From a bacterium (GTDB lineage Bacteria; UBA8248): a stretch of DNA of 64,000 nucleotides. Within the stretch, counting starts at the first letter, position 1. The number at the start of each line of letters is the position of its first letter. The stretch spans positions 576,001 to 640,000 of the forward strand of contig CBDBEV010000001.1 in NCBI GenBank assembly GCA_965204535.1, written 5' to 3'. Both the position numbers and the translations under genes were made by a program. Below are positions 17,722 through 41,709 of this stretch, in pieces. The notes below the pieces were generated by a model. It saw nothing but the letters and a program-made list of their open reading frames with translations, did not search any database and was not told where the DNA came from.

Positions 17722-17725
17722 GGCG

Positions 17726-20080: not shown

Positions 20081-20270
20081 GCCGACATCATTAGCACATG
20101 TCGAATCGCGTTACCAGTCGCCCGGGAAAATTCTATCCGATGGAGGCGATGCGCCCGGCGCCGGGTCCATCACGGCCCGCCCGAACGCTTACTCGTGTCG
20201 AGTAAGCGTTCGGGCGGGCCGTGATGGTAGTGCCTTGAAGCAGTAGTTCGGGCCGGAATGGGGGATGATT

Positions 20271-21143: not shown

Positions 21144-21147
21144 GGCG

Positions 21148-24368: not shown

Positions 24369-25211
24369 ATGTATAACTTGCTTGTTCAGTATATGCCTTG
24401 GGAAGGTGGGAGGGGCACTATATTAACAAGTCGTCTATTTGAACACACCGACGATATACTTCAAGAACAATTCAAAGATGGCGATTTGGTTCTATTGGAC
24501 AAGCTGATTCAATTCCCGTGTTTGTTTATGCAGGAAGGCACGGAAGATGAGCTTGCGCATGTAGGAACAATCACACGTGCACGACGTTCTGGCACCGATA
24601 TTTTGATCGATTATCTCTTCGATCCAGATGTCGACCCAGTTCCTAACAAGGTCATTTTCGCGAATAAAGACGAGTTTGATATGCGAGAACGGTTTGAGTT
24701 CAGCAGAACACATTGGGCACTCAAGGATGTCGACTTGTTCCGCGTGCTCCTCCGACTTTCCCAACCTCTTCGCCAAAGCCCAAAGGTATTCTCGATATCC
24801 GAGAGTGAGATAATTGAGCGCACACTAGTATCCGTAATGATGCCGTTTGATTCGGGGTTTTCCGACGTCTACGAGGCGTTACAAGAAGCGGCGACAGCAG
24901 TTGGACTTCGGTGTCGTAGGGCAGATGAAATCTGGGAAAATCCTGCAATCATTCAAGATATAGTGACGCTAATAGACAAATCTTTTCTGGTGGTATGTGA
25001 CTGTACAAAGAGAAACCCAAACGTATTCTACGAAATCGGTATTGCCCACACTCTTGGGCGTGAGGTGGTTTTGATTACTCAAGCTCATGAAGACATCCCC
25101 TTTGATCTCCGCCATCTGCGCTATATCCATTATCTTAATAATGGTGAGGGGCGTCAGGCGCTCAAAGCGGCGCTCTGTGAACGTTTTAGCTTCCTTCAAG
25201 AAAACCTGTAA
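24369..25211 (+). CDS. protein with C-terminal nucleoside 2-deoxyribosyltransferase-like (TIR-like) domain; putative defence protein
   Basis: VMMPF, RADE, II.DI..LI, CDCT.RNPNVFYEIGIAH, IPFDLRH motifs; unknown 140-aa N-terminal domain. Confidence 0.75.
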   Translation: MYNLLVQYMPWEGGRGTILTSRLFEHTDDILQEQFKDGDLVLLDKLIQFPCLFMQEGTEDELAHVGTITRARRSGTDILIDYLFDPDVDPVPNKVIFANKDEFDMRERFEFSRTHWALKDVDLFRVLLRLSQPLRQSPKVFSISESEIIERTLVSVMMPFDSGFSDVYEALQEAATAVGLRCRRADEIWENPAIIQDIVTLIDKSFLVVCDCTKRNPNVFYEIGIAHTLGREVVLITQAHEDIPFDLRHLRYIHYLNNGEGRQALKAALCERFSFLQENL

Positions 25212-25633
25212 TCGTAGTCATTGCCCATAGTTGAGAAAATCGTTCGTCAGCGGGGTGATACTGCCAGATTTGGTGTATGTGCTGAATTGAAGAAGGCGGC
25301 GCATTCCTGCTGAAATGTAGTTTTGAAGAATTTTATTTCAGCGAGAGAGGAGACGCGCCATCATGGGCAAAGATACGATGGTTTGTTTTTCGAATTCAGT
25401 CTTTCGGGACAAACTCAGCGGACTGGTGCGCAACGGCACTCGGCGGGTCCAGATCGCCTCACAAGCGGTCATAGCGCGTCAACACCTAGGGGTAACACCG
25501 TCTTCGTATCGATCCAGATCGAGAATCTGAACCGTGGTATCGTCCAGCAAAAAGGACCTCCTTATCCTCTGACGCGTGCCGATTGGATCACACACATGAA
25601 TATTCAAGCAGATCAGTTGGTTGGCGACAAAAC

Positions 25634-26545
25634 TCAATCGCATAACCCCATCTGGATATTGAACCATTCCTGGTTTGTCATTCGACCAGCGCGGTAGAGG
25701 TAAGTTGCCTCCATCTTCTTTTTAACCTCCTCTTCTGATTTGCCGTGCACCGCTTCCAGCCTGACTTTTCGGGCCATCTCTGTCTTTGGGCGTGCATGGC
25801 AGTGCCAATCCTTCCCAGATATTTCCTCAGTATGGTCAATCATGAGCTCGTAGTCATCAAACTTGGGAAAGTTCTGGTCCGACGGACAGGGGTGCTTGAT
25901 CATTCCGGCAAAGGTCTGGAACCCACATTCGTAAGTCTCGACGCGGTCCCAATCCTTATCCGCGTCATCGACCGGGGCATCTATCTGCGTCGAAAGCATC
26001 GCTCCACAGTACGTACACTGATATTCTGCCACCTGCTCCCGAAGTTCTTCGATCTCGGCCTGGAGATCTTGTATCGCCTCACCACTCGTGATCCGTTCCA
26101 GTTCAGCACGTGGGTGTGCACGATAGATATCTGGTCGGACTGTCCTCAGGAGCATGATAGCGGCCTCTTGGGCACTGACCCGGCGGGTGTCAATCGCGAA
26201 TTTGTCCGAGAGTGAAGAGCTCAGCTGGACTACCTCGTGCTTGGTGACGCCATGCCAGATTGGCAAGATTTTGAGATCCTCCTCGACGTCACGATTAACC
26301 AGACCTCGGAGTTCATAATCGGGCCAAGCCTTGCCGATGAAAGCTCTGCTTATCACGACAATGCCGAATCTAGCGCCAGTTATTCCTTTGTCGATCTCGC
26401 GGGTGATGCTGTCGCCAACGTCCAAGGAGAATTCGTCATACCAGACCGACATCCCAAAATTTCGCAGCGCAGTCGCCAGTGAGCGGACAAACCCGTCCTT
26501 ATCTTCTGATGCGTGGCAAACGAATACATCGTAGTCTTGTGGCAT
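25634..26545 (-). CDS. TIR domain protein (TcpC-like) with Cys-rich C-terminal domain
   Basis: YDVFVCHASEDK, VWYDEFSL.VGDSI, W..YEL catalytic Glu, ILPIWH; CTYC, ECG and HPCP in the C-terminus. Confidence 0.88.
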   Translation of the reverse strand: MPQDYDVFVCHASEDKDGFVRSLATALRNFGMSVWYDEFSLDVGDSITREIDKGITGARFGIVVISRAFIGKAWPDYELRGLVNRDVEEDLKILPIWHGVTKHEVVQLSSSLSDKFAIDTRRVSAQEAAIMLLRTVRPDIYRAHPRAELERITSGEAIQDLQAEIEELREQVAEYQCTYCGAMLSTQIDAPVDDADKDWDRVETYECGFQTFAGMIKHPCPSDQNFPKFDDYELMIDHTEEISGKDWHCHARPKTEMARKVRLEAVHGKSEEEVKKKMEATYLYRAGRMTNQEWFNIQMGLCD

Positions 26546-26742
26546 CAGGTCGCTCCCTTCGACGTACCTATAGGCTTCCGAGGATGGTTTTAGCAGGTTT
26601 AGTACTTTGGGTCATTTCCGTTTCGGCGATGACCGGCTTGCAATGTGCTCTTACATGGCCGCGGATTTCGGGAGGGTATTCGATTCAATAGTTATGGGGA
26701 TGTCATACCGACAGGCCAGCCGAAAACCTACGAATCAAAGCA

Positions 26743-26955
26743 TCAACGGAATTTCACCTCGGTGCCATTCACCGCTTCCTTGGATTGTTTTCCTGCCTTG
26801 AAGCTTACGACCTTGCGAGCGCTGATGAGCGCTTCCTGACCCGTCTTCGGGTTGCGCCCCACGCGAGCGTTCTTCTTCCTCATCTGGAAGGAGCCGAAGC
26901 GCCTCAAGATGACGGACTCGCCACCCTTAAGTGATTCCTTGATGGTGTCGATGAT
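26743..26955 (-). pseudogene. 5'-truncated IHF/HU family DNA-binding protein
   Basis: Manual translation IIDTIKESLKGGESVILRRFGSFQMRKKNARVGRNPKTGQEALISARKVVSFKAGKQSKEAVN...; an in-frame stop lies just upstream with no start. Confidence 0.85.
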
Positions 26956-27060
26956 ACAGGGGGTTCAGGCGACCCCGCCGCGTGCAGTTCAGACGCAATC
27001 AGGCATCCTGTCCTACATTCGGCGGTAACTCCCAAACATTTGGAACACCTGAAATTCGTT

Positions 27061-27141
27061 TTGAATTTATTCAATTTACATGGTTTTCGACCATGCAAAT
27101 CATATATTGATGAAAACACCTTGAAAATATTTTGAAAATAT
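27061..27141 (+). promoter_or_regulatory. AT-rich promoter region with inverted repeats upstream of abiEi (possible autoregulatory operator)
   Basis: TTGAAT-TT-ATTCAA, CATGGT-N5-ACCATG and tandem TTGAAAATAT; AbiEi proteins are known to bind promoter IRs. Confidence 0.4.
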
Positions 27142-27150
27142 GAAATTTTA

Positions 27151-27999
27151 ATGGTTATGAGCCATCAAAGAACTCACAGACTGAAACCACTCCTGGACAA
27201 GGTCCCACCGGGCTTTATGGTCGATACGCCGTGGCTCAGGGCGCAGGGCATCGATCCCAAGTCCATCCACAACTACGTGGCTCGTGGATGGCTGGAGCGG
27301 ATCATCCGAGGGGTTTATCGCCGTCCTCTGCCCCAGGGCGTGCAGAGCTCTGCAGGGACATCCTGGGAGATATTCCTGCTCTCGCTGCAATGGGTCATGA
27401 AGCATGACGTTCATCTCGGAGGCGAGAGCGCGCTCGACCTCGCGGGCCATGCCCATTACGTCGGCCTCGGCGGTTTGCCGCGCGTTCATTTCTACGGCCA
27501 TGCGCCGCCATGGCTGAAACGATTGCCGACGCAGGCGAAGATCGTCATGCATCGCTCCGCGCTCTTCGGCGATGACCTAACCGGTGTCATCGACGCCGCT
27601 CATGATACCGAAGAGCCCGCCCGGGCAGTGAATGTCTGGCGGTGGCCCATAAAGGCCTCCTCGCCGGAGCGCGCCGTCCTCGAGGCGCTCGACGAACTGC
27701 CGAACCACGCGAGCTTCGACAACCTGGACAAAATCTTCGAAGGACTGACGACATTGCGGCCGCGGCAATTGATGACACTGCTCACGCTCTGCCGAAGCGT
27801 TAAAGTCCGGCGGCTGTTTTTCGTCTTCGCGGACAGGCACCGACATCCATGGCGCAAGCACCTGAACACCTCGAGGGTTGGCTTCGGTTCGGGGCCGCGA
27901 GCCTTGGTCAAGGGCGGCCGACTTCATCCGACCCATCGGATCTATGTACCCGAGGACTTTGCTTCTGTGAACAGGGACGAGGCAGGCACCGATGCATGA
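27151..27999 (+). CDS. abiEi: type IV TA antitoxin AbiEi
   Basis: GWLERI.RGVY, SAL.L.GHAHY, SSPERAVLE.L, C.SVKVRRLF motifs; overlaps the toxin gene. Confidence 0.9.
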   Translation: MVMSHQRTHRLKPLLDKVPPGFMVDTPWLRAQGIDPKSIHNYVARGWLERIIRGVYRRPLPQGVQSSAGTSWEIFLLSLQWVMKHDVHLGGESALDLAGHAHYVGLGGLPRVHFYGHAPPWLKRLPTQAKIVMHRSALFGDDLTGVIDAAHDTEEPARAVNVWRWPIKASSPERAVLEALDELPNHASFDNLDKIFEGLTTLRPRQLMTLLTLCRSVKVRRLFFVFADRHRHPWRKHLNTSRVGFGSGPRALVKGGRLHPTHRIYVPEDFASVNRDEAGTDA

Positions 28000-28906
28000 G
28001 CGCTATGTACATCGGGTTCGGCTGCTGCTGAGCGTCCTGCCGCATATCGCGCGGGAGAACGTGTTCGCGCTCAAGGGCGGTACTGCCATCAACCTGTTCT
28101 ACCGGGACATGCCGCGGCTCTCCGTCGATATTGACCTCACCTACTTGCCGGTGGATAACCGCGAGAAATCGCTCAAGGATATCGACGAGACGCTTGAGCG
28201 GATTATGGCGTCGGTCACTGCTCGCAACCCAAGCCTGGAGGTGAGGCGCATCCCAGGCGGTGGCAACATCGATACACGGATCATGGTCGGTGACGGCCAG
28301 GCGCAGACAAAAATCGAAACCTCACCTGTAACGCGCGGGTCGGTGCATCCGCCATTGCTGATGACGGCATCGGACACCGTGACGGAGCGATTCGGCTTCG
28401 TCGAGGTGAATGTCCTCGCATTTGAGGACCTCTACGGCGGCAAGCTGCATGCGGCGCTCGACCGCCAGCACCCGCGCGACCTCTTCGATGTCAAACTTCT
28501 TTACGAGAACGAAGGCCTCACCGACGAATTGTTCCGCGCGTTCATGGTCTATGTGGCGAGTTCAAGTCGACCGGTGCATGAACTGCTGGCGCCGGGCGCT
28601 CCCTTCCAGGACGAGTTGTACGACGAAGAGTTCGTGGGAATGACGCGAGAAGCCGTGACCAAAGAGGCGCTCATCGAAACGCGCGCGCGCCTGCACACCG
28701 ACATCAGAGAACGGTTGACGGGAGACATTGCGGCCTTCCTGCTTTCGCTCCAGGATGCAGAACCCGACTTCGACCTGATAAACCTTTCCACAGCGGTGGA
28801 CCTTCCTGCGGTTCGCTGGAAGTTGCTCAACCTCGAGAAGCTCAAAGATGAGAACCCTGAAAAGCATGCGGCGCAAAGGGGCATGCTCGAAGACCTGTTT
28901 CACTAA
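27992..28906 (+). CDS. abiEii: type IV TA nucleotidyltransferase toxin AbiEii
   Basis: FALKGGTAINLF, RLSVDIDL, KL.AALDRQHPRDLFD. Confidence 0.93.
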   Translation: MHERYVHRVRLLLSVLPHIARENVFALKGGTAINLFYRDMPRLSVDIDLTYLPVDNREKSLKDIDETLERIMASVTARNPSLEVRRIPGGGNIDTRIMVGDGQAQTKIETSPVTRGSVHPPLLMTASDTVTERFGFVEVNVLAFEDLYGGKLHAALDRQHPRDLFDVKLLYENEGLTDELFRAFMVYVASSSRPVHELLAPGAPFQDELYDEEFVGMTREAVTKEALIETRARLHTDIRERLTGDIAAFLLSLQDAEPDFDLINLSTAVDLPAVRWKLLNLEKLKDENPEKHAAQRGMLEDLFH

Positions 28907-29522
28907 TGACGAGGCGTTCAAGCCGGGGTTTCTTGCAGAATGTTCAGTTCCCGGGATTTGGATGACCGATTGTCGTTTTCAGGCAATGGGCAGCGGATAA
29001 TGTATCAAGGGAGGTTTAGCAAACTCGTTGAGGATGGTTTGCTCAGTCTTACACTCGTTTATGGGCGCTAGGGGATTTCCAACGGCTGTGAAGTCTTTGT
29101 TGTTTGTTGGAACTATTGCAGATATTTGTTTTTTGAATTTCGAACCAGGTTCACTATTTGAAATTTGTTATCAAAACGCAAGCGGATGAATTGCAATTTT
29201 TGCGCACTCCTACGAATGTTTGTCGCACCGTCTTCAAAATCCAGTTCAAGGTAGTTTGCTTGTAGTCTTACTCCGGCGTTTCACAAGAAGTCTGAGTCGA
29301 TGATGCGTTGCGACTATATTAGGAACACACCGCTAAAATAGGTTTCTTAGTTGGCCGAAAATATCTGAGTCGCAAGTCTAGTCGCGATTATCTTTCTTCC
29401 ATTCTGAAAAACCGTAGGCAGTTTCGTGTCGTAGTCATGATGCCCATTAGGCTGAAGTGGACAAGCGAGGCGGACTTCTGATAGCGCACCGCGACTTGCT
29501 CAGCAACTCTCAATCGTCTCTG

Positions 29523-29569
29523 GTCAAAGTCTTTGACAGGTTCCGAACTCAAAAACTATAGACTATAAT
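29523..29569 (+). promoter_or_regulatory. promoter with palindromic operator upstream of the ParB-SNF2-rSAM operon
   Basis: Perfect palindrome GTCAAAG-T-CTTTGAC (29523-29537) overlapping TTGACA (29533-29538); TATAGA at 29557 and TATAAT at 29564. Confidence 0.5.
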
Positions 29570-29595
29570 GTCAGATATTCGGGAGAAGAGAACTA

Positions 29596-30630
29596 ATGAT
29601 AGAAAATCATAAAATGCTGAATGTCGAAGCGATCTCTTTCGACACCGAAAACCCCAGAATAAAGATGGCACTGGAGAAGTATGGAGATCAGCTAAATGCT
29701 GAGCGCATACATTTTGCTTTGCGTTCGGCTACAGATGGTACAAGAGGGACTTCCTCTTATGCTTCTCTTAGAGATTCAATACTCACAAGTCGTGGGGTGA
29801 TATCTCCGATTACGGTCATTATTCAAAACGGCGAATATGTTTGTATCGACGGAAACACTCGTCTTGCTATCTACAAACAATTTCTCAGAGAAAATGTAGA
29901 GGGGACTTGGGCCGAGATCAAAGCAATTGTATTGGACCGTGCGGACCAACGGGACATTGAGACAATACGCGTATCAGCACATCTGGTTGGCTCCAGAGAA
30001 TGGCCCGCCTACGAAAAGGCGAGGTATCTTCATTATCTACGCAATAGTAGATTTATGGATTACAATGAAATGATAGCACTTTGTGGCGGCAACAAACTCC
30101 ACATAGAACGCGAGATTGATGCTTATCATGACATGAACGAATATTATCGTGATGTAGTTGACGACACGGCATTTCATATTGATAGGTTTAGCGGATTTCG
30201 TGAATTGCAAAAACCGAGGATCAAGGAAGCCATTTTCGAAGCCGGCCTGGAATTGAAGGATTTTGGGGAATGGATTCGCGACGGAAAAATATACAGGTTG
30301 GAAGATGTACGAGACTTACCAACTGTTCTTCGTGACGATGAAGCAAAAGAAATATTTCTTACTGGCGGTCCTCACTCCATAGAAGCGGCGGTCAAATTAC
30401 TTGATCAAAAGGCAGAAAAAGAATCCGGTCAAACAGACGCTGAGATTACACTGGAATCTGCATCTATATTTCAACTAGCGGAGATTCTTTCGCGTCGTAT
30501 CTATGATTTGCCTTATTCTGAAGTGCGGGCGCTAAAAAATAGGGAGCATGACGACGTTGCAGAACAGATAGACACTTTAGAGGGTTTGTCAGCACGTTTA
30601 CAAAGTTTGCTTGAAGATGTCTCAGAGTGA
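29596..30630 (+). CDS. ParB/Srx-like N-terminal domain protein 1
   Basis: FDTENPRI, PI.V, CIDGNTRLA, W.AYEKA motifs. Confidence 0.8.
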   Translation: MIENHKMLNVEAISFDTENPRIKMALEKYGDQLNAERIHFALRSATDGTRGTSSYASLRDSILTSRGVISPITVIIQNGEYVCIDGNTRLAIYKQFLRENVEGTWAEIKAIVLDRADQRDIETIRVSAHLVGSREWPAYEKARYLHYLRNSRFMDYNEMIALCGGNKLHIEREIDAYHDMNEYYRDVVDDTAFHIDRFSGFRELQKPRIKEAIFEAGLELKDFGEWIRDGKIYRLEDVRDLPTVLRDDEAKEIFLTGGPHSIEAAVKLLDQKAEKESGQTDAEITLESASIFQLAEILSRRIYDLPYSEVRALKNREHDDVAEQIDTLEGLSARLQSLLEDVSE

Positions 30631-31060
30631 GCAACACAGAAATTTGGTAATTGAGGTAGTGAAAGCGCTTGAGGCCCGGTGTCCGTTAATGTCGATTATT
30701 GTTGACGTGCAACAGAAGCCTGGCGACGAAGTGCCTCCGCTAATTAATGGCTTCCGCCCGGATGTGTATGCTCGGAAAGATACCGATAATTCTGTCGTTA
30801 TTGCTGAAGCCAAGACCGATAACGACCTCAAGAATAAACATACCGATAACCAAGTAGAGTCTTTTATTTACTATCTTGAGCGAAGAAGAGATGGTTTTTT
30901 CATCCTGTCTGTAACAGGCTGCGGAGCTGATCGCGCCAAGACCTTATTACGGTTTGTGCGTCAGGAAATGCATATAACCAGAACAACCATTGCTGTATTC
31001 GACGGCTGTGACTTTTGGTTGCTGGATTCAAGCGACGGTGTGACATGGCATTTAAGCTAA
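30617..31060 (+). CDS. small PD-(D/E)xK nuclease-fold protein
   Basis: GFRPDVYA...VIAEAKT motif; overlaps both neighbours. Confidence 0.65.
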   Translation: MSQSEQHRNLVIEVVKALEARCPLMSIIVDVQQKPGDEVPPLINGFRPDVYARKDTDNSVVIAEAKTDNDLKNKHTDNQVESFIYYLERRRDGFFILSVTGCGADRAKTLLRFVRQEMHITRTTIAVFDGCDFWLLDSSDGVTWHLS

Positions 31061-32511
31061 GAAAACCCCCAAAACTAAGCTCTAGACATGACGCTTACCC
31101 ATATCAGCTCGATGCGGTCAGGGCGGTGGAATCTCTGCCCTACGCCGCGATATTTCATGAACAGGGGCTGGGCAAGACAAAGATCGCAATTGATCTCATG
31201 TTAGGGTGGCTAACTGAAGATGTCGTCGATACAGTGTTTGTCATTACGAAAAAGACATTGGTTCAAAATTGGGTCGATGAACTGGCGTCTCATTCGCATC
31301 TTACGCCGAGAATTCTGTCGGGTAACCGCCGAGAAAACAGCATTGCTCTGAACTCACCTGTATTGGTCTACATCATGAACTACGAGGTTATATCAACAAA
31401 CCTTGATCTCATTCGCGAGTTCCTTGGCACCTGCCGAGTGGGAGCAATCCTGGACGAAAGCCAGAAGATCAAGAATCCAGAATCAAACCTATCGGCCTGT
31501 TTTCATTCCATAGCCGACAAATTTGAGCGCCGCATCATCATGACTGGTACTCCTGTAGCTAATCGTCCTTATGACATTTGGTCACAGATCAAGTTTCTGG
31601 ATGATGGCAAATCACTTGGGGCCTCGTTTCCCGAATTTAAGACTGCGCTCGATTTGCCGCTCAAATCTTCCTCGGTGTCAGGGTATGGACCGCGGCTAGC
31701 TGATGTTATGGGCAAAATCAAGCATTTCTCAATACGCGATACGAAACGAACAGCAGGGATCGAACTTCCTGACAAAACCATTCTGACTCATTTAGTCGAA
31801 TTGGCGCCTCGCCAGTCAGCAATTTATGCTTTGTACAGAAACGAACTGAGATACGAGTTTCAAGGCGATAGCGGTCTAGTCATTGATGACGCTGAAGACA
31901 TTTTGAAACGCCTTTTGCGCTTGGTTCAGTGCGCCTCGAATCCGGCCCTCCTTGATGAAGCCTACAATGAACTTCCTACGAAATTTTCGAAACTAGTTGA
32001 GTTATTCCACGATATTGAGGTTCAATCGAACAAAGCAATTATCTGGACCGGATTTATTAAAAATGTCGAATGGTTGAGCGGTAAACTAGCTCATCTCATG
32101 CCACAAAAAGTGCATGGGAACATGTCTGTTGCCGACCGAAACGAGTCAATTAAAATATTCAAGATAGACAGCGACTGCAGAATTTTAGTGGCTACACCCG
32201 GGTCGGCAAAAGAAGGGTTGACCTTGACGGTTGCCAACCACGCGATATTTTATGATCGTGGATTCAGCCTTGATGATTACCTACAAGCACAGGACCGTAT
32301 ACACAGAATTTCTCAAACGGAAAACTGCTTCATACACAATCTAATTGCCAAGGACACAATTGATGAGTGGGTGGATGCGCTACTAAATGCCAAGTACCAA
32401 GCTGCTCAATTGGCACAGGGAGATATATCACATGAAGAGTTTGATGCGATATTTACATGTGACCTCTCAGAAGCATTGAAACAAATATTATCTCCCGAAG
32501 GGCATTTGTAA
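31045..32511 (+). CDS. minimal SNF2/SWI2-family SF2 helicase-translocase
   Basis: YQ, EQGLGKT, LDESQKIKN, MTGTP..N, EGLTL, QAQDRIHRISQ. Confidence 0.92.
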   Translation: MAFKLRKPPKLSSRHDAYPYQLDAVRAVESLPYAAIFHEQGLGKTKIAIDLMLGWLTEDVVDTVFVITKKTLVQNWVDELASHSHLTPRILSGNRRENSIALNSPVLVYIMNYEVISTNLDLIREFLGTCRVGAILDESQKIKNPESNLSACFHSIADKFERRIIMTGTPVANRPYDIWSQIKFLDDGKSLGASFPEFKTALDLPLKSSSVSGYGPRLADVMGKIKHFSIRDTKRTAGIELPDKTILTHLVELAPRQSAIYALYRNELRYEFQGDSGLVIDDAEDILKRLLRLVQCASNPALLDEAYNELPTKFSKLVELFHDIEVQSNKAIIWTGFIKNVEWLSGKLAHLMPQKVHGNMSVADRNESIKIFKIDSDCRILVATPGSAKEGLTLTVANHAIFYDRGFSLDDYLQAQDRIHRISQTENCFIHNLIAKDTIDEWVDALLNAKYQAAQLAQGDISHEEFDAIFTCDLSEALKQILSPEGHL

Positions 32512-32530
32512 TGTGTAAAGGAGAAATTAT

Positions 32531-33541
32531 ATGGAAAAAAGAAAGATAAAGCTGCTGCGTGAAGAAATTCCTCTAAGCAGCGATTTTGAGGATATACATA
32601 GTCTCAAATTCCTGAAAGACAATCCTAGGGTATACGCTTGTACACATGGGCATCCTAACTTTGAAAACCTGATGGAGGAAGAGCAACAAGACATTATTTT
32701 AGAAAAACTCCTTCAGGAACCCAGCGTCAAAAATCTGATTCCTGACGTCAAGCGGCACGGTGGGCTTATGGAGTCGATATTGATCCGCAAGGATACAATG
32801 GAAGTCATAGAAGGCAATTCCCGATTAGCCGTTTATCGAAAATTATATGATGATGAGGTGGCAGGTGATTGGGAACTTATTCCTTGTGACATAGTAAGCA
32901 ACCTCACAGAAGACCAACAGGCAGCCTTCTTAAATCAGATTCATGTCAAAGGCAAAACACAGTGGTCACCCTATGAACAGGCCAATTTCGCCTATGTGCG
33001 TAAGGCTCAAGGATGGCGCTTCGACAAGATCGCAGATCTGTTTGGGGAGTCGGAGGTAACAATACGCACTAGAGTTAGAATTATTCAGATGATGAAGGAC
33101 AACGAAGATAGCCAACAGCCTCATTTCAGTTTTTATGACGTTATAGTTCGTAAACCGGAAATTTCAAAGGCAATAAATGACGATGCAAATCTCCGCGGCT
33201 GCCTCATGGTAAAAATTAAAAATTTTGATACAGGGGAGGAGGGCAACGAGTTTACGGCACAAGACCTGAGAAATAAGCTCCCGGCACTTCTGAAGAAACC
33301 CAAAGTGCTAAAAAAGTTTATTGTCGGCGAGATTGATCTGGATGAGGGATATCAACGTGCCAAGATCAGCCAAGTAGAAGAGAGAGTAAGAAAGGCGGTG
33401 GCTCTTCTTGATGATGTCGAGCACAATGATATTTCACAACTGGAGCAAGTCCGTTTTAACGCGTTCAAGCAAGATGTCCGGAAACTGGCGCAGAGAGTTG
33501 ACAGAATAAATCGGATGATAACAGGTATTGGTGCAAAATGA
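32531..33541 (+). CDS. ParB/Srx-like N-terminal domain protein 2
   Basis: LKDNPRV, GGL.ESI, VIEGNSRLA, H..GK..WSPYEQA, following HTH-like segment. Confidence 0.8.
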   Translation: MEKRKIKLLREEIPLSSDFEDIHSLKFLKDNPRVYACTHGHPNFENLMEEEQQDIILEKLLQEPSVKNLIPDVKRHGGLMESILIRKDTMEVIEGNSRLAVYRKLYDDEVAGDWELIPCDIVSNLTEDQQAAFLNQIHVKGKTQWSPYEQANFAYVRKAQGWRFDKIADLFGESEVTIRTRVRIIQMMKDNEDSQQPHFSFYDVIVRKPEISKAINDDANLRGCLMVKIKNFDTGEEGNEFTAQDLRNKLPALLKKPKVLKKFIVGEIDLDEGYQRAKISQVEERVRKAVALLDDVEHNDISQLEQVRFNAFKQDVRKLAQRVDRINRMITGIGAK

Positions 33542-35193
33542 CTGCAAGAAACGTCCTACTGATCGAGCCGGGCTACCCCAATAAGTACCCGCCTCTCGGC
33601 TTAATGAAGCTGGCCGCATACCACGGCCCCCAAGGACGTGGAGACCGTGTTTGTTTCATCAAGGGCGAAGTAAAGGATGTGCTGGATGAACCATGGGACC
33701 GTGTCTATGTCACAACCTTGTTCAGCTTCGAATGGGCGCGTACGGCGCGGGCCATAGACTTCGCGCTTAAGGCGTCAGGCAACCAGCCTGAGCGAGTGTT
33801 CGTCGGTGGCATCGCGGCCTCGCTCATGCGCGACGAATTTGTGAAGGAGCCGCGCTGGGCGGGCGTCCGGTTCATCCAGGGTTTGCTCGACGGAGCGCCG
33901 GCCCAAGCGCTTGAATTATCACTAGATAATTGTGACTTCGGCGCCGATGACTTGACCGGAACACCGATTGAAGAATTAGTCCCTGACTACGGCATCCTCG
34001 ACCAGACAGACTATACATACCCTGTCCATGATGCGTATTTTGGTTACGCCTCTCGCGGTTGCGTACGCAAGTGCGCCTTCTGTGGAGTGCCCAAACTGGA
34101 AGGCGACCAGCGCGAAATGCCACCGCTTACGAATCTCGTCAACGGAATCGATAAGGCGTATGGGCCGAAAAAAGATCTCGTATTGATGGATAACAACATC
34201 ACGGCGTCCGCGCGCTACAAGGAGGTGATCGCCGAAATCCGCGACCTCGGTTTCACGCCTGGGGCGAAGTTTGAGCGAGACGGACTTCAATCGCTGAAGC
34301 GCCGCGTCGATTTCAATCAAGGGGTCGATGCCCGCATTCTAGTCAAATCACCAATGTTTCTGCGGGAGATGTCCACAATTTGCATCAGTCCTCTTCGTAT
34401 CGCCTTCGACCACATCGGTGTGCGCAAGGTCTATGAAGCCTCGGTCCGCATGGCCGTGGACAACAGAATCACTTCAATGTCCAACTACATGCTCTACAAC
34501 TTCATGGACACGCCGGAGGACCTGTACGAGAGGATGCGGCTTAATATCGCTCTCAACGAAGAGTTGGGAATCCGTCTTTGGTCATTTCCGATGCGTTACC
34601 AGCCCGTTACGCTTAAAGACCGCTCTCACGTGGGAATAAACTGGAATCGATACTATCTGCGCTCGTTCCAGATCATGCTGCAGGCGACTCGTGGAATCAT
34701 CAGCGGCAACCCCCCCTTCTTCATGCGAGCCTATGGTCAGGACAAGCGGGCTTTCAAACAGTTGTTGAGCCTTCCGCATGTGTTCATTTTCCATCGTGAT
34801 TATTACGAGAACGGGCCTGGGCGTGCGGTACGAGATGAATACGAGGGATTGCGCCGTCGACTCTCCGAAAGCCAGGAACAAGAACTAATCCATTATCTTT
34901 CCGGTCCGGTCGAAGCGAAAGGGCTGCGACGGGAACATTATCGGCGGCTGGTCACAGATCGGAGTGTTGATCCTCTTATTCGAAAAATTGTCCCCTTCCA
35001 TATTTTGGACACTAAAGACACTCCAGGTATGGAAACCAGTAAACTTCTGCCGCTTTTCCCGGAGTTGAACCCTAACCCCGTCATGCCTGAAAAGGACGAG
35101 GTCGTTGAAGACGCCGGTTTGTTCGACCATGAACATATTCTGAATGGGAAGGAAAAAGTCGTTCTGCCTGTCATGGACCAGCAGACAGGTTGA
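33538..35193 (+). CDS. radical SAM enzyme with B12-binding-like N-terminal domain
   Basis: LLIEP...YPPLGLMKLAAY, VFVGG..AS, SRGCVRKCAFC (CxxxCxxC), MDNN, VDFNQGVDAR; ATGA overlap with the upstream gene. Confidence 0.9.
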   Translation: MTARNVLLIEPGYPNKYPPLGLMKLAAYHGPQGRGDRVCFIKGEVKDVLDEPWDRVYVTTLFSFEWARTARAIDFALKASGNQPERVFVGGIAASLMRDEFVKEPRWAGVRFIQGLLDGAPAQALELSLDNCDFGADDLTGTPIEELVPDYGILDQTDYTYPVHDAYFGYASRGCVRKCAFCGVPKLEGDQREMPPLTNLVNGIDKAYGPKKDLVLMDNNITASARYKEVIAEIRDLGFTPGAKFERDGLQSLKRRVDFNQGVDARILVKSPMFLREMSTICISPLRIAFDHIGVRKVYEASVRMAVDNRITSMSNYMLYNFMDTPEDLYERMRLNIALNEELGIRLWSFPMRYQPVTLKDRSHVGINWNRYYLRSFQIMLQATRGIISGNPPFFMRAYGQDKRAFKQLLSLPHVFIFHRDYYENGPGRAVRDEYEGLRRRLSESQEQELIHYLSGPVEAKGLRREHYRRLVTDRSVDPLIRKIVPFHILDTKDTPGMETSKLLPLFPELNPNPVMPEKDEVVEDAGLFDHEHILNGKEKVVLPVMDQQTG

Positions 35194-35234
35194 GAGCGGT
35201 GAATTGAGAATTGAATTGCTTGGGGAGAAAAGAC

Positions 35235-36713
35235 ATGCTAGACGCGAACGCGCCGGAAGCATTGATCGGCGGCGATATTTTGAACCTCATCACCGTCGGC
35301 ATGTACGACAATCCACTGGCCATTTACCGGGAATACATCCAAAACGCGGCAGACGCCATCTCGAACGCTGAAAGTCTTAGGGACGGTAAAGTCGAAATCA
35401 ACATCGACCCATCTGGGTTGAGCGTAAGGATTCGTGATAACGGCCCGGGACTTTCTCACGAAGCGGCGCTTCGAGCGCTGTTACCTATTGCCAGAAGCCA
35501 GAAACAGCGGGGAACCGACAGCGGATTTCGGGGTATAGGTCGGTTGTCGGGATTGGCCTTCGCGGAGTCGGTTACCTTTAGAACACGAGATCAAGACGAT
35601 AAACCAGTTACTTGTATCATATGGGATGGACCCAAACTCCGTAACGCTATCGCCAAGGCCACAAAAACAGAGAGTGCGATCCGGGAATGTATTACCTTAG
35701 AAACTTTGTCTGCAGAGAAATATCCCGCTCATTTTTTCGAGGTCGAAGTTGGCGGGATTGGACGACACGCAGCAGGACTTTTACTCAATACGGAAGCCGT
35801 ACAGGCTTACATAGGCGAAGTCTGCCCAGTACCTATCGGTCCATCTTTCCCTTTCACTTCGGAGATCAATAATTTATTTAGAAAAGATAAAGCGACTCTA
35901 GATCTGGAAGTCACACTTAACGACGAACTCACTCCTGTGACACGACGATACGGAGAGGTAATTCGATTCTCTAAAGACAGAGAGGATCGATTTATTGAAT
36001 TTGAAGAAGTAGACATCTCCTCCGCAGATGGAAACGATATGGCCGCTGTAGGCTGGGTTGCGCATTCCTCCTATCTCGGCGCAATCCCGAAAGAACTCGG
36101 CATTCGAGGCATCCGGGCTCGTGCGGGAAACATTCAGATTGGTGATGAGAACGTGTTTGAGCATCTATTTCCTGAGGAGCGGTTTAACCGCTGGTGCGTC
36201 GGTGAGATTCACATAATGGACTCTCGTATTGTTCCGAACGGGCGACGTGACTACTTTGAGCTGGGACCACACACCAGAAACCTAGAAAATCAAATGGCTG
36301 CTGTCGCCCGTCGAATTTCGGCAAGATGTCGAACAGCGTCTACGGCACGCAATAAAGAGTACAAATTTCAGACTGAACTAGCTCAAATGGAAGAAACTTA
36401 TGATCTCGCAGTTTCAGGGTATCTATCCGCCGAAAACGCGAAGGCACTGATCGGGCAAGCATTGGATCGTATTCAGGGCATTCGGGAAAGCCTCGACACG
36501 ATGAACAGTCACGTGAGAGAAAACCTTGAGAAATTGTATGTCCTGGAGAGGAAGTTGAGCAGCTTCCGCGTTCGGCGTGGTCGTCCCCCTATGGGAAGTG
36601 TTTCAGCGTCTGAGGTCGCAACCTACAGAAAAATCTTCCAAACCTTGGCGGAGGCATCACCATCGCCACGCGCCGCAAAGGAAATGATAGAAGCCGTCTT
36701 GGCGAATGCTTAG
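35235..36713 (+). CDS. GHKL (HSP90/MORC-like) ATPase
   Basis: REYIQNAAD, DNGPG, GFRGIGRLSG, GNIQIG, VGEIH, PNGRRD. Confidence 0.88.
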   Translation: MLDANAPEALIGGDILNLITVGMYDNPLAIYREYIQNAADAISNAESLRDGKVEINIDPSGLSVRIRDNGPGLSHEAALRALLPIARSQKQRGTDSGFRGIGRLSGLAFAESVTFRTRDQDDKPVTCIIWDGPKLRNAIAKATKTESAIRECITLETLSAEKYPAHFFEVEVGGIGRHAAGLLLNTEAVQAYIGEVCPVPIGPSFPFTSEINNLFRKDKATLDLEVTLNDELTPVTRRYGEVIRFSKDREDRFIEFEEVDISSADGNDMAAVGWVAHSSYLGAIPKELGIRGIRARAGNIQIGDENVFEHLFPEERFNRWCVGEIHIMDSRIVPNGRRDYFELGPHTRNLENQMAAVARRISARCRTASTARNKEYKFQTELAQMEETYDLAVSGYLSAENAKALIGQALDRIQGIRESLDTMNSHVRENLEKLYVLERKLSSFRVRRGRPPMGSVSASEVATYRKIFQTLAEASPSPRAAKEMIEAVLANA

Positions 36714-37110
36714 CTCAGGCGGAGTGCAATCCATCGAAGAATATTGCGACAGGGGCTTGGAGGAAACTAAATTGAACAAAACATCCCGCTTGAGATTATC
36801 AAGGCAGTGCCGTTCAGGGGCGGGAGTAAACAAATCTAACTCGCCGCCTGACACTACCATCATAAACTTTTGGGCATAGCTCGCCCTTGTTCTAACAAAA
36901 TCTCTACCTAACACAAATAGCCGATGACCTCCTCTGGTTTGCAGCGCTTCATCTCTATCGGTAGTTCTTGTCTCCCCCCATAACCTGAAGATAACCTAAT
37001 CCACTAGGAATGAGTCGAGATTAGCATTTACGCTCTGTCAATTCCTAACTACCCTCCGTTACTTTATCTCCAAACTATTTACGGGTTTTTGCTTCGACAT
37101 TCTGTGTATC

Positions 37111-38694
37111 CTAAGTTCCCCTCTCAAAGCGATGTACTAGACTTGCCTTGATCTTCTGGTATGCGTCGGGGTCTACAAAGGCATTAATAACATCCAGAAC
37201 CTCCTTGAGAAGCTGCTCTCTCAATCGTGCCTTGAGGCCTTCTAGAAGTTCACTTTCATCAAGCACCTGACCCATCATCAACCGTGCCTTTTCTTCAACT
37301 GTTTTTATATCATCCGCCGCCTCCAGCAAAGAGGCGGCTCTCTGTTTTATACTTTCTCCTTCCTCTATCGTTGCTTCATCCAAATCACCAACAACTTTCT
37401 GAAGTCGTGCTATCTTTCTTCGATGCCGCTTAGCATTGTTCATCAAATCAACAATTTGGTCGTAATTCGTGCGAGGGCCTTTTCCCAGAGTATCCGCCCT
37501 TAACAGCACCTTCCTTACATCTTCGATTACCTTATCGATATCCTGACCACCTTGTTTTGATGCTTCGTACGCATCAGCGGAAAGCGGTTTGCAAACGTTG
37601 ACACACAAACTTTCCTGAATTCCAACCCAGTCTTCAAGCTCTTCAAACCCATCGCGACGAGCATTTGGAATAACCCTTTTCGGGTCAATATAGATTTCGC
37701 CAACATAATAGCTGCTAAAGCGGCTATATGATGGTTTCAGATCCGAAAACAACCTTTCAACAATTTGTGTACCGTCAACTTGAATATTGCGAACACGAAT
37801 TCGTAGTCCTCTTGTATTTCTATCGGTAACTGCTGCCGACTCGCTGAGCCGTCCCACCCAAGCCCAATACCACCCCTCTTCTCCAAGAAAATAGTCTATC
37901 TCTTGCAGGTTCATCGTTCCTTTTGCGTGCTCATATTCTTCGCCATAAGGCTTCACCACTTCCTTTTTTTGGGCATCATGCTCGATCCACACGTCAACTG
38001 TCTCCAAGGCTCTTCCGAAATACTGTTCGTAATTTTTCTGGATATCAGCACTTCTGACCCAGCTTGGATCAAGCTTCACGGGAACCGTTTGGCATAGATA
38101 AGAATATATCTCTTTTGGTCTTCTCAGCGAATCGGGGGCATTCGACAATCCTTCCAAAGTGACCTCGAAGAAATGATCGTCTAAACAACTTTCAACTTCT
38201 TGCTTCTGGAAATCTAATGCATTCATTAGCAACTTTGCCAATTCGAACTCACCACCTCTATCTGGATCCATTGCTCGCAATAAATTCTTACAGTCAAATT
38301 GAATTGTACTTATGGAAGTTTCACCTGGAAAAGTTGTTCGAAATGTAAGCTTGTCACAATACGCCATTCCCGCGAGGCGTCCAATTCCACGAAAGCCTGC
38401 ATCCCGCTCTCGGTCCTTTTTAGAAGCGCCAATCGAAGTAAGCGTTCTCCACGCTTGATTTACCGAAATGCCAAGACCGTTGTCCTTTATAATAAGCGCG
38501 TCTTCTTTCACTTTTACGGCGACACAACCTCTCTCTTCCAGAATTCCCATTCGTTGCGCAGCTCTAATGGAGTCGAATGAGTTTTGAATATATTCTCTAA
38601 GAGTGTGTCGCGGTTCACCATACATGCCTAGCGTTAGAGTTTCTAGAACAAAGGCTCCTATATGAGGCGCAGGATTAGTCGCAGCAGTTTTCAT
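37111..38694 (-). CDS. GHKL (HSP90/MORC-like) ATPase, paralogue of 35235-36713, with coiled-coil tail
   Basis: REYIQNSFD, DNGLG, GFRGIGRLAG, RNIQV, VGEIY, PNARRD. Confidence 0.88.
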   Translation of the reverse strand: MKTAATNPAPHIGAFVLETLTLGMYGEPRHTLREYIQNSFDSIRAAQRMGILEERGCVAVKVKEDALIIKDNGLGISVNQAWRTLTSIGASKKDRERDAGFRGIGRLAGMAYCDKLTFRTTFPGETSISTIQFDCKNLLRAMDPDRGGEFELAKLLMNALDFQKQEVESCLDDHFFEVTLEGLSNAPDSLRRPKEIYSYLCQTVPVKLDPSWVRSADIQKNYEQYFGRALETVDVWIEHDAQKKEVVKPYGEEYEHAKGTMNLQEIDYFLGEEGWYWAWVGRLSESAAVTDRNTRGLRIRVRNIQVDGTQIVERLFSDLKPSYSRFSSYYVGEIYIDPKRVIPNARRDGFEELEDWVGIQESLCVNVCKPLSADAYEASKQGGQDIDKVIEDVRKVLLRADTLGKGPRTNYDQIVDLMNNAKRHRRKIARLQKVVGDLDEATIEEGESIKQRAASLLEAADDIKTVEEKARLMMGQVLDESELLEGLKARLREQLLKEVLDVINAFVDPDAYQKIKASLVHRFERGT

Positions 38695-38716
38695 ATTTTA
38701 GGTCACCTCCTTCTTT

Positions 38717-40588
38717 TTAGCCACAATCATCCTCCTCAAAGTCTGTATCGGAACTTAACCCGCCCGTAGAAAATGCATCCAACCGGACCAAACCAGTGTC
38801 CGCAGACCACTTGTACATTCCTTCGTCATATTCTTCAGTTAGAAGATCGACCGGAATGGCGAATTCATCTCCAATAAGACTGCGAAGTGTTGTTCCAGAA
38901 CATTCATTTCGGACTACGTTACTAAGTAGTGACCTCAATCTCCTGGGATTTGTCTCATGCAAATTCTCGGCTAATGCTTGATGGCCTCCAATGCGAATTT
39001 CAGTAAGTAATAGTGGCTTGCCCTTCTGTCCTTTAAGTGTGTTTAAGGTATAAGGTACCTTCGCACGCTCGCCGCTAGGCAAATATGGTAGCATTGCCCC
39101 TTCATCCATCAGATATTGATTTAGTGCTTGAAACGCTTCGTCTAACCAAGACTCTTTTTCGAGGGCAAACACTGTAGGCAGGAGAGACCTCTTAGGCATG
39201 GTTAGCAACTCTCCCTGCCTAGAAAAATAGGCGGATGTGATCAGACCCAAAACTACTCTGTTTACTCCAAGGGGGTCACTATCCTGTCGTAATCGTTCAA
39301 AAATATCCGGGCTATCTATCAACCACTGGTCTGATCTGTTTAGTATCAGTTCGGCGAGTAGCCTTCCTAGTTGAAATGGATCAAGAATACCCGACTTGAC
39401 TTTGGACAACCAGGTATCCATTTGGTGCGACTTTTCATCAACACTTCCTCTCAGATAGGTGTTCAACTCCGTAGAAATTGTCATCAACATTAATTGCGCA
39501 AGCGAGGGAGGGTCCAAACGATTCACTACCGCAGGTTTACCAATTGCTACATCTTCACTAGGGCTATCCCCATTGGAGTCGCTATCTGAATGTTCAGTGA
39601 CCGGATGTTCGAGAGTCTGATCTTCCACTTTGTCTGCAACGTGGCTGTGCACGTATAAGGCCGTTCGCAATGTAGAGAAAATGCTCTTTTCCCCTGCCAC
39701 ACTTGCTACGTGCTCGTCCGCTAGGACCAAAAAGCGGGGGTGAAGTACCAATATATTGCCTTGCTCTCGCTGAGCAGTTAGCTCATGCACCAGCAGTGGG
39801 TGCGGGCGAACAACATCATACCCGCTATCTTTGTTTGGTTTTTCTTTTACTGACCTTTTTCCTTTTACAAAAGAAGCGGTTGAAACCCAATCCGTTTTTT
39901 CATCACAAGATAGCAGAACAAAATTCATATTGTCGCATGTTCCATGCTTGGAAGGGAGGTCTGCAATAATTTCTTCCCAGATCACCACGTCACCGTAACG
40001 ATTGATTTCTTTCTTGTCCTTATAGCCTGGTGGAACTAGGTGGCTGTATCGGAATTCCCCAGTTTCTTGAAGACGTGCGATGATAGGGTTAAGATTGCTT
40101 CTGAGCACATTTTCGTTAACAAAGGAAATAATTTCTTCAATTGCGTCACTAAGGTATCTATCATCTCTAGTCACATTGATTAAATTTCGCACCCTCGAAA
40201 ATGAGTGTCTAATCTCAGTGACATAACTATCTCGATTAGAGTAACCACGTTCTTTGCAAATTTCATCATCAGCTCTTTCGAGTGCGAGAACCATGAAATC
40301 ATGGATTTTCTTTTCTAAATCCGAGGAAATTTTCCGAATGTCATTTCTAGTGCTCTCCTGAACAATATGACGATGAAATTCATGAGCCGCCCAAACCGGA
40401 ACACGAATAGAACCTTCCGTCCTAGTATTACACCAACCTATAAATTCCTTCCGAGCAGTCACACCTAGCCGGACCAGAAGCATCAGCAATGAAGTATCCA
40501 AGTAATAGATTGTATTGTTTGACTGAAACGTTTCGGCTACCTCATCCATGAACTCATCATAGTCCCGAATGAATGGATCTAATTTCAT
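38717..40588 (-). CDS. PIN-like (DUF4935-type) nuclease domain protein with large unknown C-terminal region
   Basis: YLDTS, VP.W..HEF, PPGYKD, YGD.VIW.EI, SCDEK.DW. Confidence 0.8.
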   Translation of the reverse strand: MKLDPFIRDYDEFMDEVAETFQSNNTIYYLDTSLLMLLVRLGVTARKEFIGWCNTRTEGSIRVPVWAAHEFHRHIVQESTRNDIRKISSDLEKKIHDFMVLALERADDEICKERGYSNRDSYVTEIRHSFSRVRNLINVTRDDRYLSDAIEEIISFVNENVLRSNLNPIIARLQETGEFRYSHLVPPGYKDKKEINRYGDVVIWEEIIADLPSKHGTCDNMNFVLLSCDEKTDWVSTASFVKGKRSVKEKPNKDSGYDVVRPHPLLVHELTAQREQGNILVLHPRFLVLADEHVASVAGEKSIFSTLRTALYVHSHVADKVEDQTLEHPVTEHSDSDSNGDSPSEDVAIGKPAVVNRLDPPSLAQLMLMTISTELNTYLRGSVDEKSHQMDTWLSKVKSGILDPFQLGRLLAELILNRSDQWLIDSPDIFERLRQDSDPLGVNRVVLGLITSAYFSRQGELLTMPKRSLLPTVFALEKESWLDEAFQALNQYLMDEGAMLPYLPSGERAKVPYTLNTLKGQKGKPLLLTEIRIGGHQALAENLHETNPRRLRSLLSNVVRNECSGTTLRSLIGDEFAIPVDLLTEEYDEGMYKWSADTGLVRLDAFSTGGLSSDTDFEEDDCG

Positions 40589-41709
40589 CTAACACTCCAG
40601 CATTTAGTCACACTTAGTAATATTTGATAAGGAGAATTGTTGCGCACTAGAAACGGTAGATGAGGGAAAAAGAGCATAACCTCTCAACACAACTCGCAAA
40701 TGCGAAAACGAAAAACATAAACTTATCATGCCGCTTTTATGTAATATTCATTTTGATTGTGCTTGGTCTAATTATTCCCGTTCTGCAACTTGTGGTCATT
40801 GTGCACACTCGACAACCACGCAACCCCTTGATGTTTTATCCATTCCAGCGGCCACAAGCCAGCAGTCGAGAAAGAGTCCATTATCACTTGTAAGCGATTA
40901 ACTTTAATATACTGGCCTCCGAGAGGCGTATTTGGATTTTGACAACCCCATTTCAGCAGGATGCGCCGCCTTCTTCAATTCAGCCCATACACAAGACCTG
41001 AGTGTAACTCCGTATTTGTCACATTCTATCACAGTACTGGTCAAGGAACTGCCAACCTGCTCACCGCATCACTAAGTGTCCTGCCGAGTTATAGAGTAGG
41101 CATCTTTGACGCAGTGACCGAGACGGAATCACCCGTGTAGAAGTGTCGACCGGCATGGGTTTGCCTACTTATCAACCGGAACGCCCCGAAGCAAGCGAGT
41201 GAACCATGCTAGCTACCACATGCCATGCGAGCACATCATGGTTGGTTCGCCCTATTCCTAGTATCGGGCAGGCGTTAATAAAGGCAAACTGTGGAATGTG
41301 CCGCCAAACTGTGTGCGCGGTCTGTCCGGCATATGACGCATCAAGACAGGCACAGCTTAGGAGGTGGCGTCGGCGATGTGTGCGGCGACCAGTTTATGGC
41401 TGTGAGATTGAATGACAAGTTTATCCAGCACCTCGGAGGCGGACTGAGCGGCGAATATGGTTTCTAATACTGCGCGAAAAACGTGCACGGTGGCATAGCG
41501 AAGCGCCCAGACGGTTTTTATTGTAGGCTTCGACAGTGCTTGGAAAAGAGTTCTTTAAGATGATCAACGACGGCGTAAAGCGAGTCGAGCAACTCTGGAA
41601 CTTCGCTAAATTGGTCGCGGCTAACGGCGGTTCGCGCTTCCTTAGTGGACCTATTGCGTCAGAGCCGTGCACGAATTCAAAGTTCGTCGCCGACGCAACG
41701 CGAGTGAAT

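Follow-up and report, generated by a model that had tools for sequence, protein, structure and literature searches.

The stretch of DNA considered here, which we call the window, is 64,000 nucleotides (nt) long (contig CBDBEV010000001.1, positions 576,001 to 640,000) and comes from a bacterium of the UBA8248 lineage. It carries a cluster of eight genes, A to H, that is conserved, mobile, and without a name in PADLOC, NCBIfam, or Pfam. At its centre stand a radical S-adenosylmethionine (SAM) enzyme, E, and an Hsp90-like ATPase, F, and it is likely that the cluster defends bacteria by writing a chemical mark on their own DNA. The cluster is not a fixed operon; it consists of two separately inherited blocks, genes A to D and an E-F core.

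Positions 29596-36713 are filled by six co-oriented open reading frames on the forward strand (A to F; 344, 149, 498, 336, 551, and 500 amino acids [aa]). With the longest starts their junctions measure −20, −46, +19, −4, and +17 bp; if the more likely ATG codons of B (30617), C (31045), and F (35235) are taken, they become −14, −16, +19, −4, and +41 bp. An earlier reading of this DNA, made from the letters alone (hereafter the sequence-only reading), had described six co-oriented genes with gaps or overlaps of 41 bp or less, and with the likelier starts this is borne out. The motifs it named are likewise intact: DGNTR (A85), PD50..EAK66, GLGKT51/DESQ147, EGNSR (D94), CVRKCAFC (E175), and the GHKL boxes. 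Nor is the gene order a product of chance: of 80 genome loci found with E as anchor, 38 show the arrangement A-B-C-D-E-F. The six genes are real, then, and the account stopped short on the right, where a convergent PIN and second GHKL pair (G and H, 37111-40588) likely belongs to the system.

The E-anchored set comprises the best 80 of 99 confirmed genome loci, with E at 65-80% identity. Grouped from their record titles, these loci span about ten phyla, and many of the hosts bear names that we take to be typical of sponge symbionts. Complete A-D blocks were found in 52 of them (upstream of E in 38, downstream in 12, convergent in 2) and partial blocks in 3. Other loci carry other partners: a HerA-NurA-GHKL module in 13 (profile matches to phage HerA at an E-value of 5e-82 and to a NurA-like exonuclease at 8e-36), a GHKL protein with a PP_RS20740/putative methyltransferase-like protein in 12, DGQHR-HEPN in 10, and PIN-GHKL in 1; 2 loci have no module. 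A DGQHR partner matches DpdB and DndB models, and the 771-aa partner matches DpdB at 7e-20. F adjoins E on its 3' side in 79 of the 80. The reverse set, anchored on A, holds 87 loci (7 viral and the best 80 of 482 metagenomic), 50 of which have E; the misses are mostly short contigs. Where a complete A-D block has at least 3 kb of sequence on both sides, E and F are present in 26/26 loci, in at least four gene arrangements, and where 3 kb is available on one side E is present in 44/48. Dependence therefore runs one way, from A-D to the E-F core, and the core is free to change partners.

Gene trees were built for A, C, D, E, and F from 91 sequences each (the window and 90 loci that carry the five, 9 duplicates having been removed; B was left out). 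Tree distances correlate at 0.86-0.88 among A, C, and D and at 0.83 between E and F, compared with 0.25-0.31 across the blocks, which indicates that A-D blocks have been swapped between E-F lineages and yet stay beside one. Sampling by two anchors could inflate this contrast between and within blocks; it is visible inside the E-anchored set as well, where one locus (L004; numbers with L are our locus handles) has E at 76% and A at 78% identity and another (L006) has E at 76% and A at 38%. The sequence-only reading had treated the six genes as one operon and had grouped the ATPase with the attacking proteins, and on both points it has to be revised: the assembly is modular, and F belongs on the putative writer side with E, because its tree distances follow those of E (0.83) and not those of the ParB and SNF2 genes (0.25-0.30).

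Gene E encodes a radical SAM enzyme with its CxxxCxxC motif at residues 175-182; across 91 sequences the only conserved cysteines are C175, C179, C182, and C282. The match to PF04055 reaches an E-value of only 0.0025, under the cut-off, and a PDB sequence search returned nothing significant; E does match phrog_9298 at 7e-37. Over the whole chain its predicted structure (predicted local distance difference test [pLDDT] 76) resembles MgmA (Z 13.4, root-mean-square deviation [rmsd] 5.0, 334 residues aligned), MiaB (Z 13.1), TsrM (Z 11.8), and OxsB (Z 11.3), at 11-17% identity to these fold relatives. Residues 1-134 resemble the cobalamin domain of methionine synthase (Z 9.6, rmsd 3.1, 119 aligned) and AerR (Z 9.3, rmsd 3.1, 112 aligned). 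Methylthiotransferases such as MiaB and RimO carry three N-terminal cysteines for an auxiliary cluster. E has no conserved cysteine before residue 175, and the RimO model scores 19.6 bits against a cut-off of 357; that assignment was rejected, and a B12-type radical SAM enzyme appears to be the better reading of the model. Cobalamin binding by E is suggested by the fold only. The host genome encodes four B12-binding domains over the cut-off, so the host uses B12. As a measure of how widespread the system is, 7997 candidates were scored and 7055 were hits, distant homologues included.

F is a GHKL ATPase of the HtpG/Hsp90 kind. It matches PF13589 (E-value 6e-9), the HSP90 family model NF010683 (5e-11, under the cut-off), and HtpG (3e-10), and its motifs EYIQNAAD, DNGPG, and GFRGIG are present and conserved. 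The sequence-only reading had also offered the label MORC, which we withdraw: the MORC motif GhXhhpXXRhl occurs in 0/91 F proteins and not in G, F has GIRARAGNIQI, and its best solved relatives are HtpG/Hsp90. Complex prediction lends weak support to the view that E and F may bind one another. The predicted E-F pair scores 0.45 against 0.02 for the best control, its runs share at least 94% of contacts, and partner pLDDT is at least 83. The mark set for such scores was reached by 116/157 solved and 2/215 mismatched pairs, and those reaching it with scores of 0.60 or less comprise 18 solved pairs and both mismatches.

The A-D block combines two ParB-like proteins, a nuclease, and a translocase, all predicted. 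The model of A (pLDDT 82.6) finds ParB, Noc, KorB, and the pNOB8-like ParB 5K5A/5K5D by Foldseek (E-values 4e-6 to 5e-4); N19-P20-R21 and G86-N-T-R89 are invariant in 16/16 sequences, and the C-terminal regions are helix-turn-helix-like and helical. D is related to A (22.6% identity over 195 aa, E-value 1e-10), conserves N31-P-R33 and G95-N96-S-R98, and matches the PHROG ParB-like family at 2e-7; a sub-threshold Sigma70_r4_2 match (0.02) covers a 26-aa stretch. In B, residues P50, D51, E66, and K68 are invariant in 20/20 homologues. Family support for B is weak and seen in sequence only (REase_AHJR-like in 6/20 members, best E-value 0.001, under the cut-off), and a PDB sequence search gave no significant relative. 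C has SNF2 domains (PF00176 at 4e-26, PF00271 at 3e-15) and intact motifs (GLGKT51, DESQ147, and QAQDRIHRI424); in PADLOC it matches only parts, namely the helicase domains of ZorD, DpdE, and DrmD.

Plasmids bear on the convergent pair, G and H. Among 72,556 plasmid records, full-length E was found on 12, which represent about 8 independent elements. Every one of the 12 records also carries F and a relative of the PIN protein H, and a G-type gene is present on 11. Gene A occurs on 7 plasmid records, each of them among these 12. The H-G pair converges on F in the window, and the same layout is seen on Rhizobium plasmid pR132505; on a Roseomonas plasmid about 88 kb separate the PIN-G pair and E-F. 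Since 6 plasmid records that lack E also have weaker PIN relatives, PIN alone is not specific to the system. The plasmid versions inspected have a small DGQHR gene directly 5' of E, and the window has none. Cultured, non-pathogenic carriers with the system on a plasmid include Novosphingobium aromaticivorans DSM 12444 (pNL1) and Rhizobium leguminosarum WSM1325 (pR132505).

Table 1. The eight-gene cluster and the defence genes upstream of it (positions in the window)
Feature	Positions	Strand	Description
A	29596..30630	+	ParB/Srx-fold protein 1, 344 aa; NPR and DGNTR motifs
B	30611..31060	+	Small predicted PD-(D/E)xK nuclease, 149 aa; likely ATG 30617
C	31015..32511	+	Minimal SNF2-family ATPase/translocase, 498 aa; likely ATG 31045
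D	32531..33541	+	ParB/Srx-fold protein 2, 336 aa; paralogue of A
E	33538..35193	+	Radical SAM enzyme, 551 aa, predicted cobalamin-binding-type Rossmann N-domain; constant core
F	35211..36713	+	HtpG/Hsp90-like GHKL ATPase, 500 aa; likely ATG 35235; no fused nuclease detected; constant core
G	37111..38694	-	Second Hsp90-like GHKL ATPase, 527 aa; F paralogue, 31% identity over 358 aa
H	38717..40588	-	PIN_8 domain protein, 623 aa, predicted nuclease; PF18476 E-value 1e-23, acidic motifs present
TIR-like gene	24369-25211		280-aa protein, weak TIR-effector match
TIR gene	25634-26545		TIR_2 protein, PDC-S66/ThsB-like
AbiEi/AbiEii	27151-28906		Type IV toxin-antitoxin pair, intact

How might such a cluster work? 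We would give about even chances to a scheme in which the E-F core marks self DNA and the exchangeable modules attack unmarked DNA or cells lacking the mark. F would shut as an ATP-driven clamp and position E. Using SAM, a [4Fe-4S] cluster, and probably cobalamin, E would then methylate or rearrange an unactivated carbon or phosphorus in DNA. The ParB paralogues would load as nucleotide-gated DNA clamps, the SNF2 protein would translocate, and the PD-(D/E)xK protein would cut unmarked sites, with PIN-GHKL serving as a parallel or back-up effector. The purpose would be to protect the integrative conjugative element (ICE) and its host from phages or plasmids.

The argument for this scheme rests on the survey. 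Because a constant core is found with unrelated modules, and A-D essentially never without it, the core should supply something that all the modules need, and this suggests modification-restriction logic, much as a methylase is indispensable to restriction genes. The movement of A-D blocks from one core lineage to another makes a shared chemical product likelier than cognate protein or antitoxin contact. That the product is a mark on self DNA is favoured by the DNA-handling folds of the partners and by the distribution of methylases, for which 13 seed methylases were searched with phmmer at moderate sensitivity. As the sequence-only reading had said of the operon, no conventional methylase is present: none was found in the window by this search, and a methylase lies in the fetched flank of only 4/180 system loci, adjacent in 1. 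Short viral and plasmid homologues of E, on the other hand, have a methylase nearby in 6/9 loci, which also favours a mark on DNA; two of these are also near PAPS-reductase genes. Cytosine methylases are visible in loci L186 and L187. That a radical SAM enzyme can act on DNA is known from gp53 of phage M6 (PMC8989533). A further precedent is AbiR, compared below, whose ParB and nuclease-SNF2 proteins belong to a system that is toxic when its methylase is missing (PMC13064643).

Several points weigh against a DNA mark, or against the strength of the counts. E is not basic (isoelectric point 6.5) and has no recognisable DNA-binding domain; conservation is even (0.70-0.79) over its first 435 residues, a span that contains no variable target-recognition region. 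Its best fold match, MgmA, is a protein methylase, and MiaB, which acts on RNA, lies within 1 Z; likewise, the best solved relatives of F are protein chaperones. The B12 assignment is itself strained by the lack of a PF02310 or other Pfam B12-binding match on E and by the motif DxHxxG, which occurs in 0/91 E sequences. Phage replication regions often carry methylases anyway, and this weakens the 6/9 count. Since the loci surveyed are related, include some duplicates, and were drawn with two anchors, the counts are not independent, and there are exceptions: L166 has A-D and 5.9 kb downstream with no E (upstream there is 0.3 kb only), L127 has A-D-E but lacks F as far as the contig reaches, and L034 has E without F.

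A bolder version of the DNA-mark scheme, offered tentatively and with some doubt, would recognise here a further class of bacterial epigenetic DNA mark, in addition to base methylation, phosphorothioation, and 7-deazaguanine. The mark would arise from cobalamin-dependent radical chemistry on unactivated carbon or phosphorus, with an Hsp90-type clamp loading the radical SAM enzyme. At least five unrelated effector modules would share it as their signal of self, and it would have spread over about ten phyla of sponge symbionts and to rhizobial plasmids.

It is unlikely, in our judgement, that E-F instead makes or alters a small nucleotide (a signal, a licence molecule, or an antiviral analogue) that the nucleotide-binding folds of the ParB and DGQHR proteins read in order to restrain or free the nucleases. 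One fold match of E, OxsB, acts on a free nucleotide, and uniform conservation of E suggests an invariant substrate. A common diffusible product would account for module swapping equally well, and also for the PIN-GHKL pair that lies so far from E-F on the Roseomonas plasmid. Among radical SAM defences, Ophion and the viperins have been proposed, or demonstrated, to act on nucleotides (10.1101/2025.09.30.679545), and a neighbourhood of a cyclase, HSP90, and radical SAM gene has been reported (10.64898/2026.10.19.760177). However, an enzyme with a soluble substrate has no obvious need of a dedicated GHKL clamp (79/80 loci), and E, as a B12-type two-domain enzyme, would be unlike viperin. Moreover, no kinase, phosphoribosyltransferase (PRTase), or cyclase recurs among the annotated neighbour clusters, most of the small clusters being unannotated.

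Improbable too, in our view, is a toxin-antitoxin or abortive-infection device, in which F is a chaperone or switch, E methylates a protein (F or the effectors), and the nucleases are kept off until infection. The kinship of F to HtpG/Hsp90 suits it, as do the top fold match of E, a protein glutamine C-methylase, and the weakly supported contact between E and F. PIN and HEPN proteins are typical suicide RNases, Hsp90-like domains have been proposed as switches in other immune systems, and the island also holds AbiEi/AbiEii and TIR genes. The difficulty is that the modules which depend on the core are unrelated proteins for which no common substrate is evident, and that they exchange between E-F lineages, which cognate protein-protein control tolerates poorly; the ParB-SNF2-nuclease and HerA-NurA modules, moreover, point to DNA processing.

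We think it very unlikely that the job of the cluster is maintenance of the element or exclusion of rival plasmids and ICEs (addiction), or that E damages incoming DNA directly. The F-type conjugative setting, the 12 plasmid records and at least 7 viral contigs that carry the system, and its absence from the 22 other genus genomes searched all fit such a role. Against it, the neighbours are TIR and AbiE genes, and the one-way dependence is easier to square with a core that protects than with one that attacks; addiction and defence do not, in any case, exclude each other. A chance cluster of unrelated genes, which is conceivable in a defence island where unrelated genes gather and gene order varies, is largely refuted by the 26/26 co-occurrence, the overlapping reading frames, and the congruent trees within blocks, and we regard it as close to negligible.

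The cluster was then set beside described systems. PADLOC, NCBIfam, and Pfam models name no system for it and match at the level of domains only. The sequence-only reading had suggested that lactococcal AbiR-like loci share some of the components. The ParB-like subunit is indeed common to both: AbiR, from Lactococcus plasmid pKR223, has the ParB-like AbiRb and a nuclease-SNF2 protein. The rest of the AbiR gene content is not matched. As described, AbiR has three genes, including an 820-aa sigma70-like AbiRa, and nothing of that size or kind is among the window's eight; it has one ParB, whereas the system here has two (A and D); its nuclease is fused N-terminally to SNF2, whereas here the Walker A of C is at residue 51 and the nuclease is a separate gene, B; and it has a conventional methylase, M.LlaKR2I, whereas the seed search of moderate sensitivity found none in the window. 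The passages describing AbiR mention no radical SAM enzyme or GHKL protein, and no AbiR model is among the PADLOC matches listed. Membership in AbiR was accordingly rejected on gene content, by AbiR's own published description. AbiR is toxic without its DNA-modifying methylase, and AbiRb has been overlaid on PDB 5K5D in a review (both PMC13064643); our model of A also matches 5K5D, with a template modelling (TM) score of 0.51 by target length, a likeness at fold level only. By analogy, AbiR may be the best functional counterpart.

The Dnd (phosphorothioate) and Dpd (7-deazaguanine) systems are similar in design, with a multi-protein writer that includes an ATPase, an optional gene of the DGQHR/ParB superfamily, and variable, decoupled nuclease modules; DGQHR genes also accompany Dnd modification (PMC10853773). 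They differ in that no PADLOC match to DndA/C/D/E or DpdA/C falls on any of the eight genes, DpdE matches are limited to the SNF2 domain of C, and the putative writer here pairs a GHKL ATPase with a radical SAM enzyme of B12 type. The MORC and paraMORC loci of Iyer (2008) place a GHKL+S5 ATPase beside an SF2/SNF2 helicase and a nuclease of restriction endonuclease fold; their GhXhhpXXRhl motif is absent here, MORC loci use DNA methylases, and the full text of that paper contains neither "ParB" nor "radical SAM" (PMC2292703).

With the cobalamin-dependent radical SAM enzymes (MgmA, TsrM, TokK, OxsB, CysS) and with MiaB/RimO, E shares a Rossmann N-domain followed by a barrel (Z 11-13). To our knowledge, none of these acts on chromosomal DNA or needs a GHKL partner. 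Radical SAM enzymes also figure in phage conflict as Ophion, the prokaryotic viperins, and M6 gp53, of which gp53 modifies DNA. Ophion, as described, is viperin-related and combines a radical SAM enzyme with PHP and a PRTase, and gp53 is described as an isomerase, encoded by a phage, that resembles spore photoproduct lyase; both lack the partners of E and its N-domain. A three-gene neighbourhood of PAACC, HSP90, and radical SAM genes has been mentioned in a single sentence and read there as toxin-antitoxin-like (10.64898/2026.10.19.760177). It too places HSP90 and radical SAM genes beside a predicted effector, in that case a cyclase, and it may be the same core with another module; the comparison is by description only. 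Menshen, Tiamat, Ophion, the system of PMC3632139, and Dnd were compared, as published, and set aside as different systems. Full-text literature searches yielded no description of the system found here, though their coverage of subscription journals is thin.

Several further observations concern individual loci. The GHKL and PP_RS20740/Methyltransf_35-like pair can be seen, for example, in L056, L022, L029, L033, L030, and L040, and this protein, with a methyltransferase-like fold, could be a reader or a second writer. In L011 (13156-14889), alone among system loci, a methylase-like gene with an SPPY motif adjoins F. A two-gene module (proteins of about 340 and 280 aa) converges on F in L112 (12328-14192), L118, L121, L125, L148, and L161, which are soil- and freshwater-type metagenomes. 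L102 (1-11035) has an orphan A gene with a probable transposase after it; judged by eye, the N-termini of the genes alongside resemble those of a Dnd cluster. In Marinitoga camini virus 1 (L084, 5998-9824) a short E homologue is convergent with genes for HerA and a NurA-like protein, no GHKL gene being annotated there, and a gut "phage" contig (L193, 454-8314) reads NurA-HerA-GHKL-radical SAM; together these indicate that the link between radical SAM and HerA-NurA reaches distant lineages. Viral contigs searched from L127 for short-form relatives of E yielded none that was confirmed.

Judged by its neighbours in the sequence, the eight-gene cluster sits in an F-type conjugative element. Profile searches find F-type traW/U/N/F/G, TraD, and a TrwC relaxase on the left of the six genes and transposases with a Strawberry-notch helicase on the right, and PADLOC models place the TIR, AbiEi, and AbiEii genes immediately upstream. 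The six-gene block has a G+C content of 47.6%, against 69% in the flanking transfer region. Gene E was found in 0/22 other genomes of the genus and 0/50 other genomes of the phylum (E-value threshold 1e-20), which suggests a recent arrival of the system. No transfer RNA gene was found in the window. A scan for promoters and terminators gave 8 and 7 sites where 17.5 and 12.0 were expected, none of them 5' of gene A. A search for expression listed no RNA data set that contains the sequence. In one study, two runs that are probably the source of the assembly yield contigs tiling 24000-40979, with no differing letters listed for those pieces. A third run has a variant of E with 26 differing sites listed, 22 of them at third codon positions, which indicates purifying selection.

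An inverted repeat (51-70 nt, 82% complementary) at 25254-25317 and 40940-41011 encloses 15.7 kb with a TIR gene, AbiE, the six genes, the second GHKL gene, and PIN. The same repeat family was found several more times in the genome, and two of its pairs bracket a duplicated 3.9-kb cargo with no evident transposase, although relative to their cargo these pairs point the opposite way. The repeats around the 15.7 kb are possibly the ends of a non-autonomous mobile element. To the left, 16780-23616 is an exact tandem duplication with a period of 3422 bp, carrying an IS66-family transposase and a Druantia DruA-like (DUF4338) protein within terminal inverted repeats of 26-29 nt; it could be a real tandem insertion sequence or an assembly artefact. 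A second patch of low G+C (60027-62383) holds a ThsB-like TIR gene (PADLOC E-value 2e-120) and a gene of the uracil-DNA-glycosylase family.

We know of no earlier use of a B12-type radical SAM enzyme with an Hsp90-like ATPase as the writer of a restriction system. If the core does write a DNA mark, it would bring a modification chemistry new to cellular genomes, and one that standard methylome calling would not name. Under the rival readings, too, this would be a widespread and unnamed immune platform; in either case it is likely a defence platform centred on a radical enzyme.

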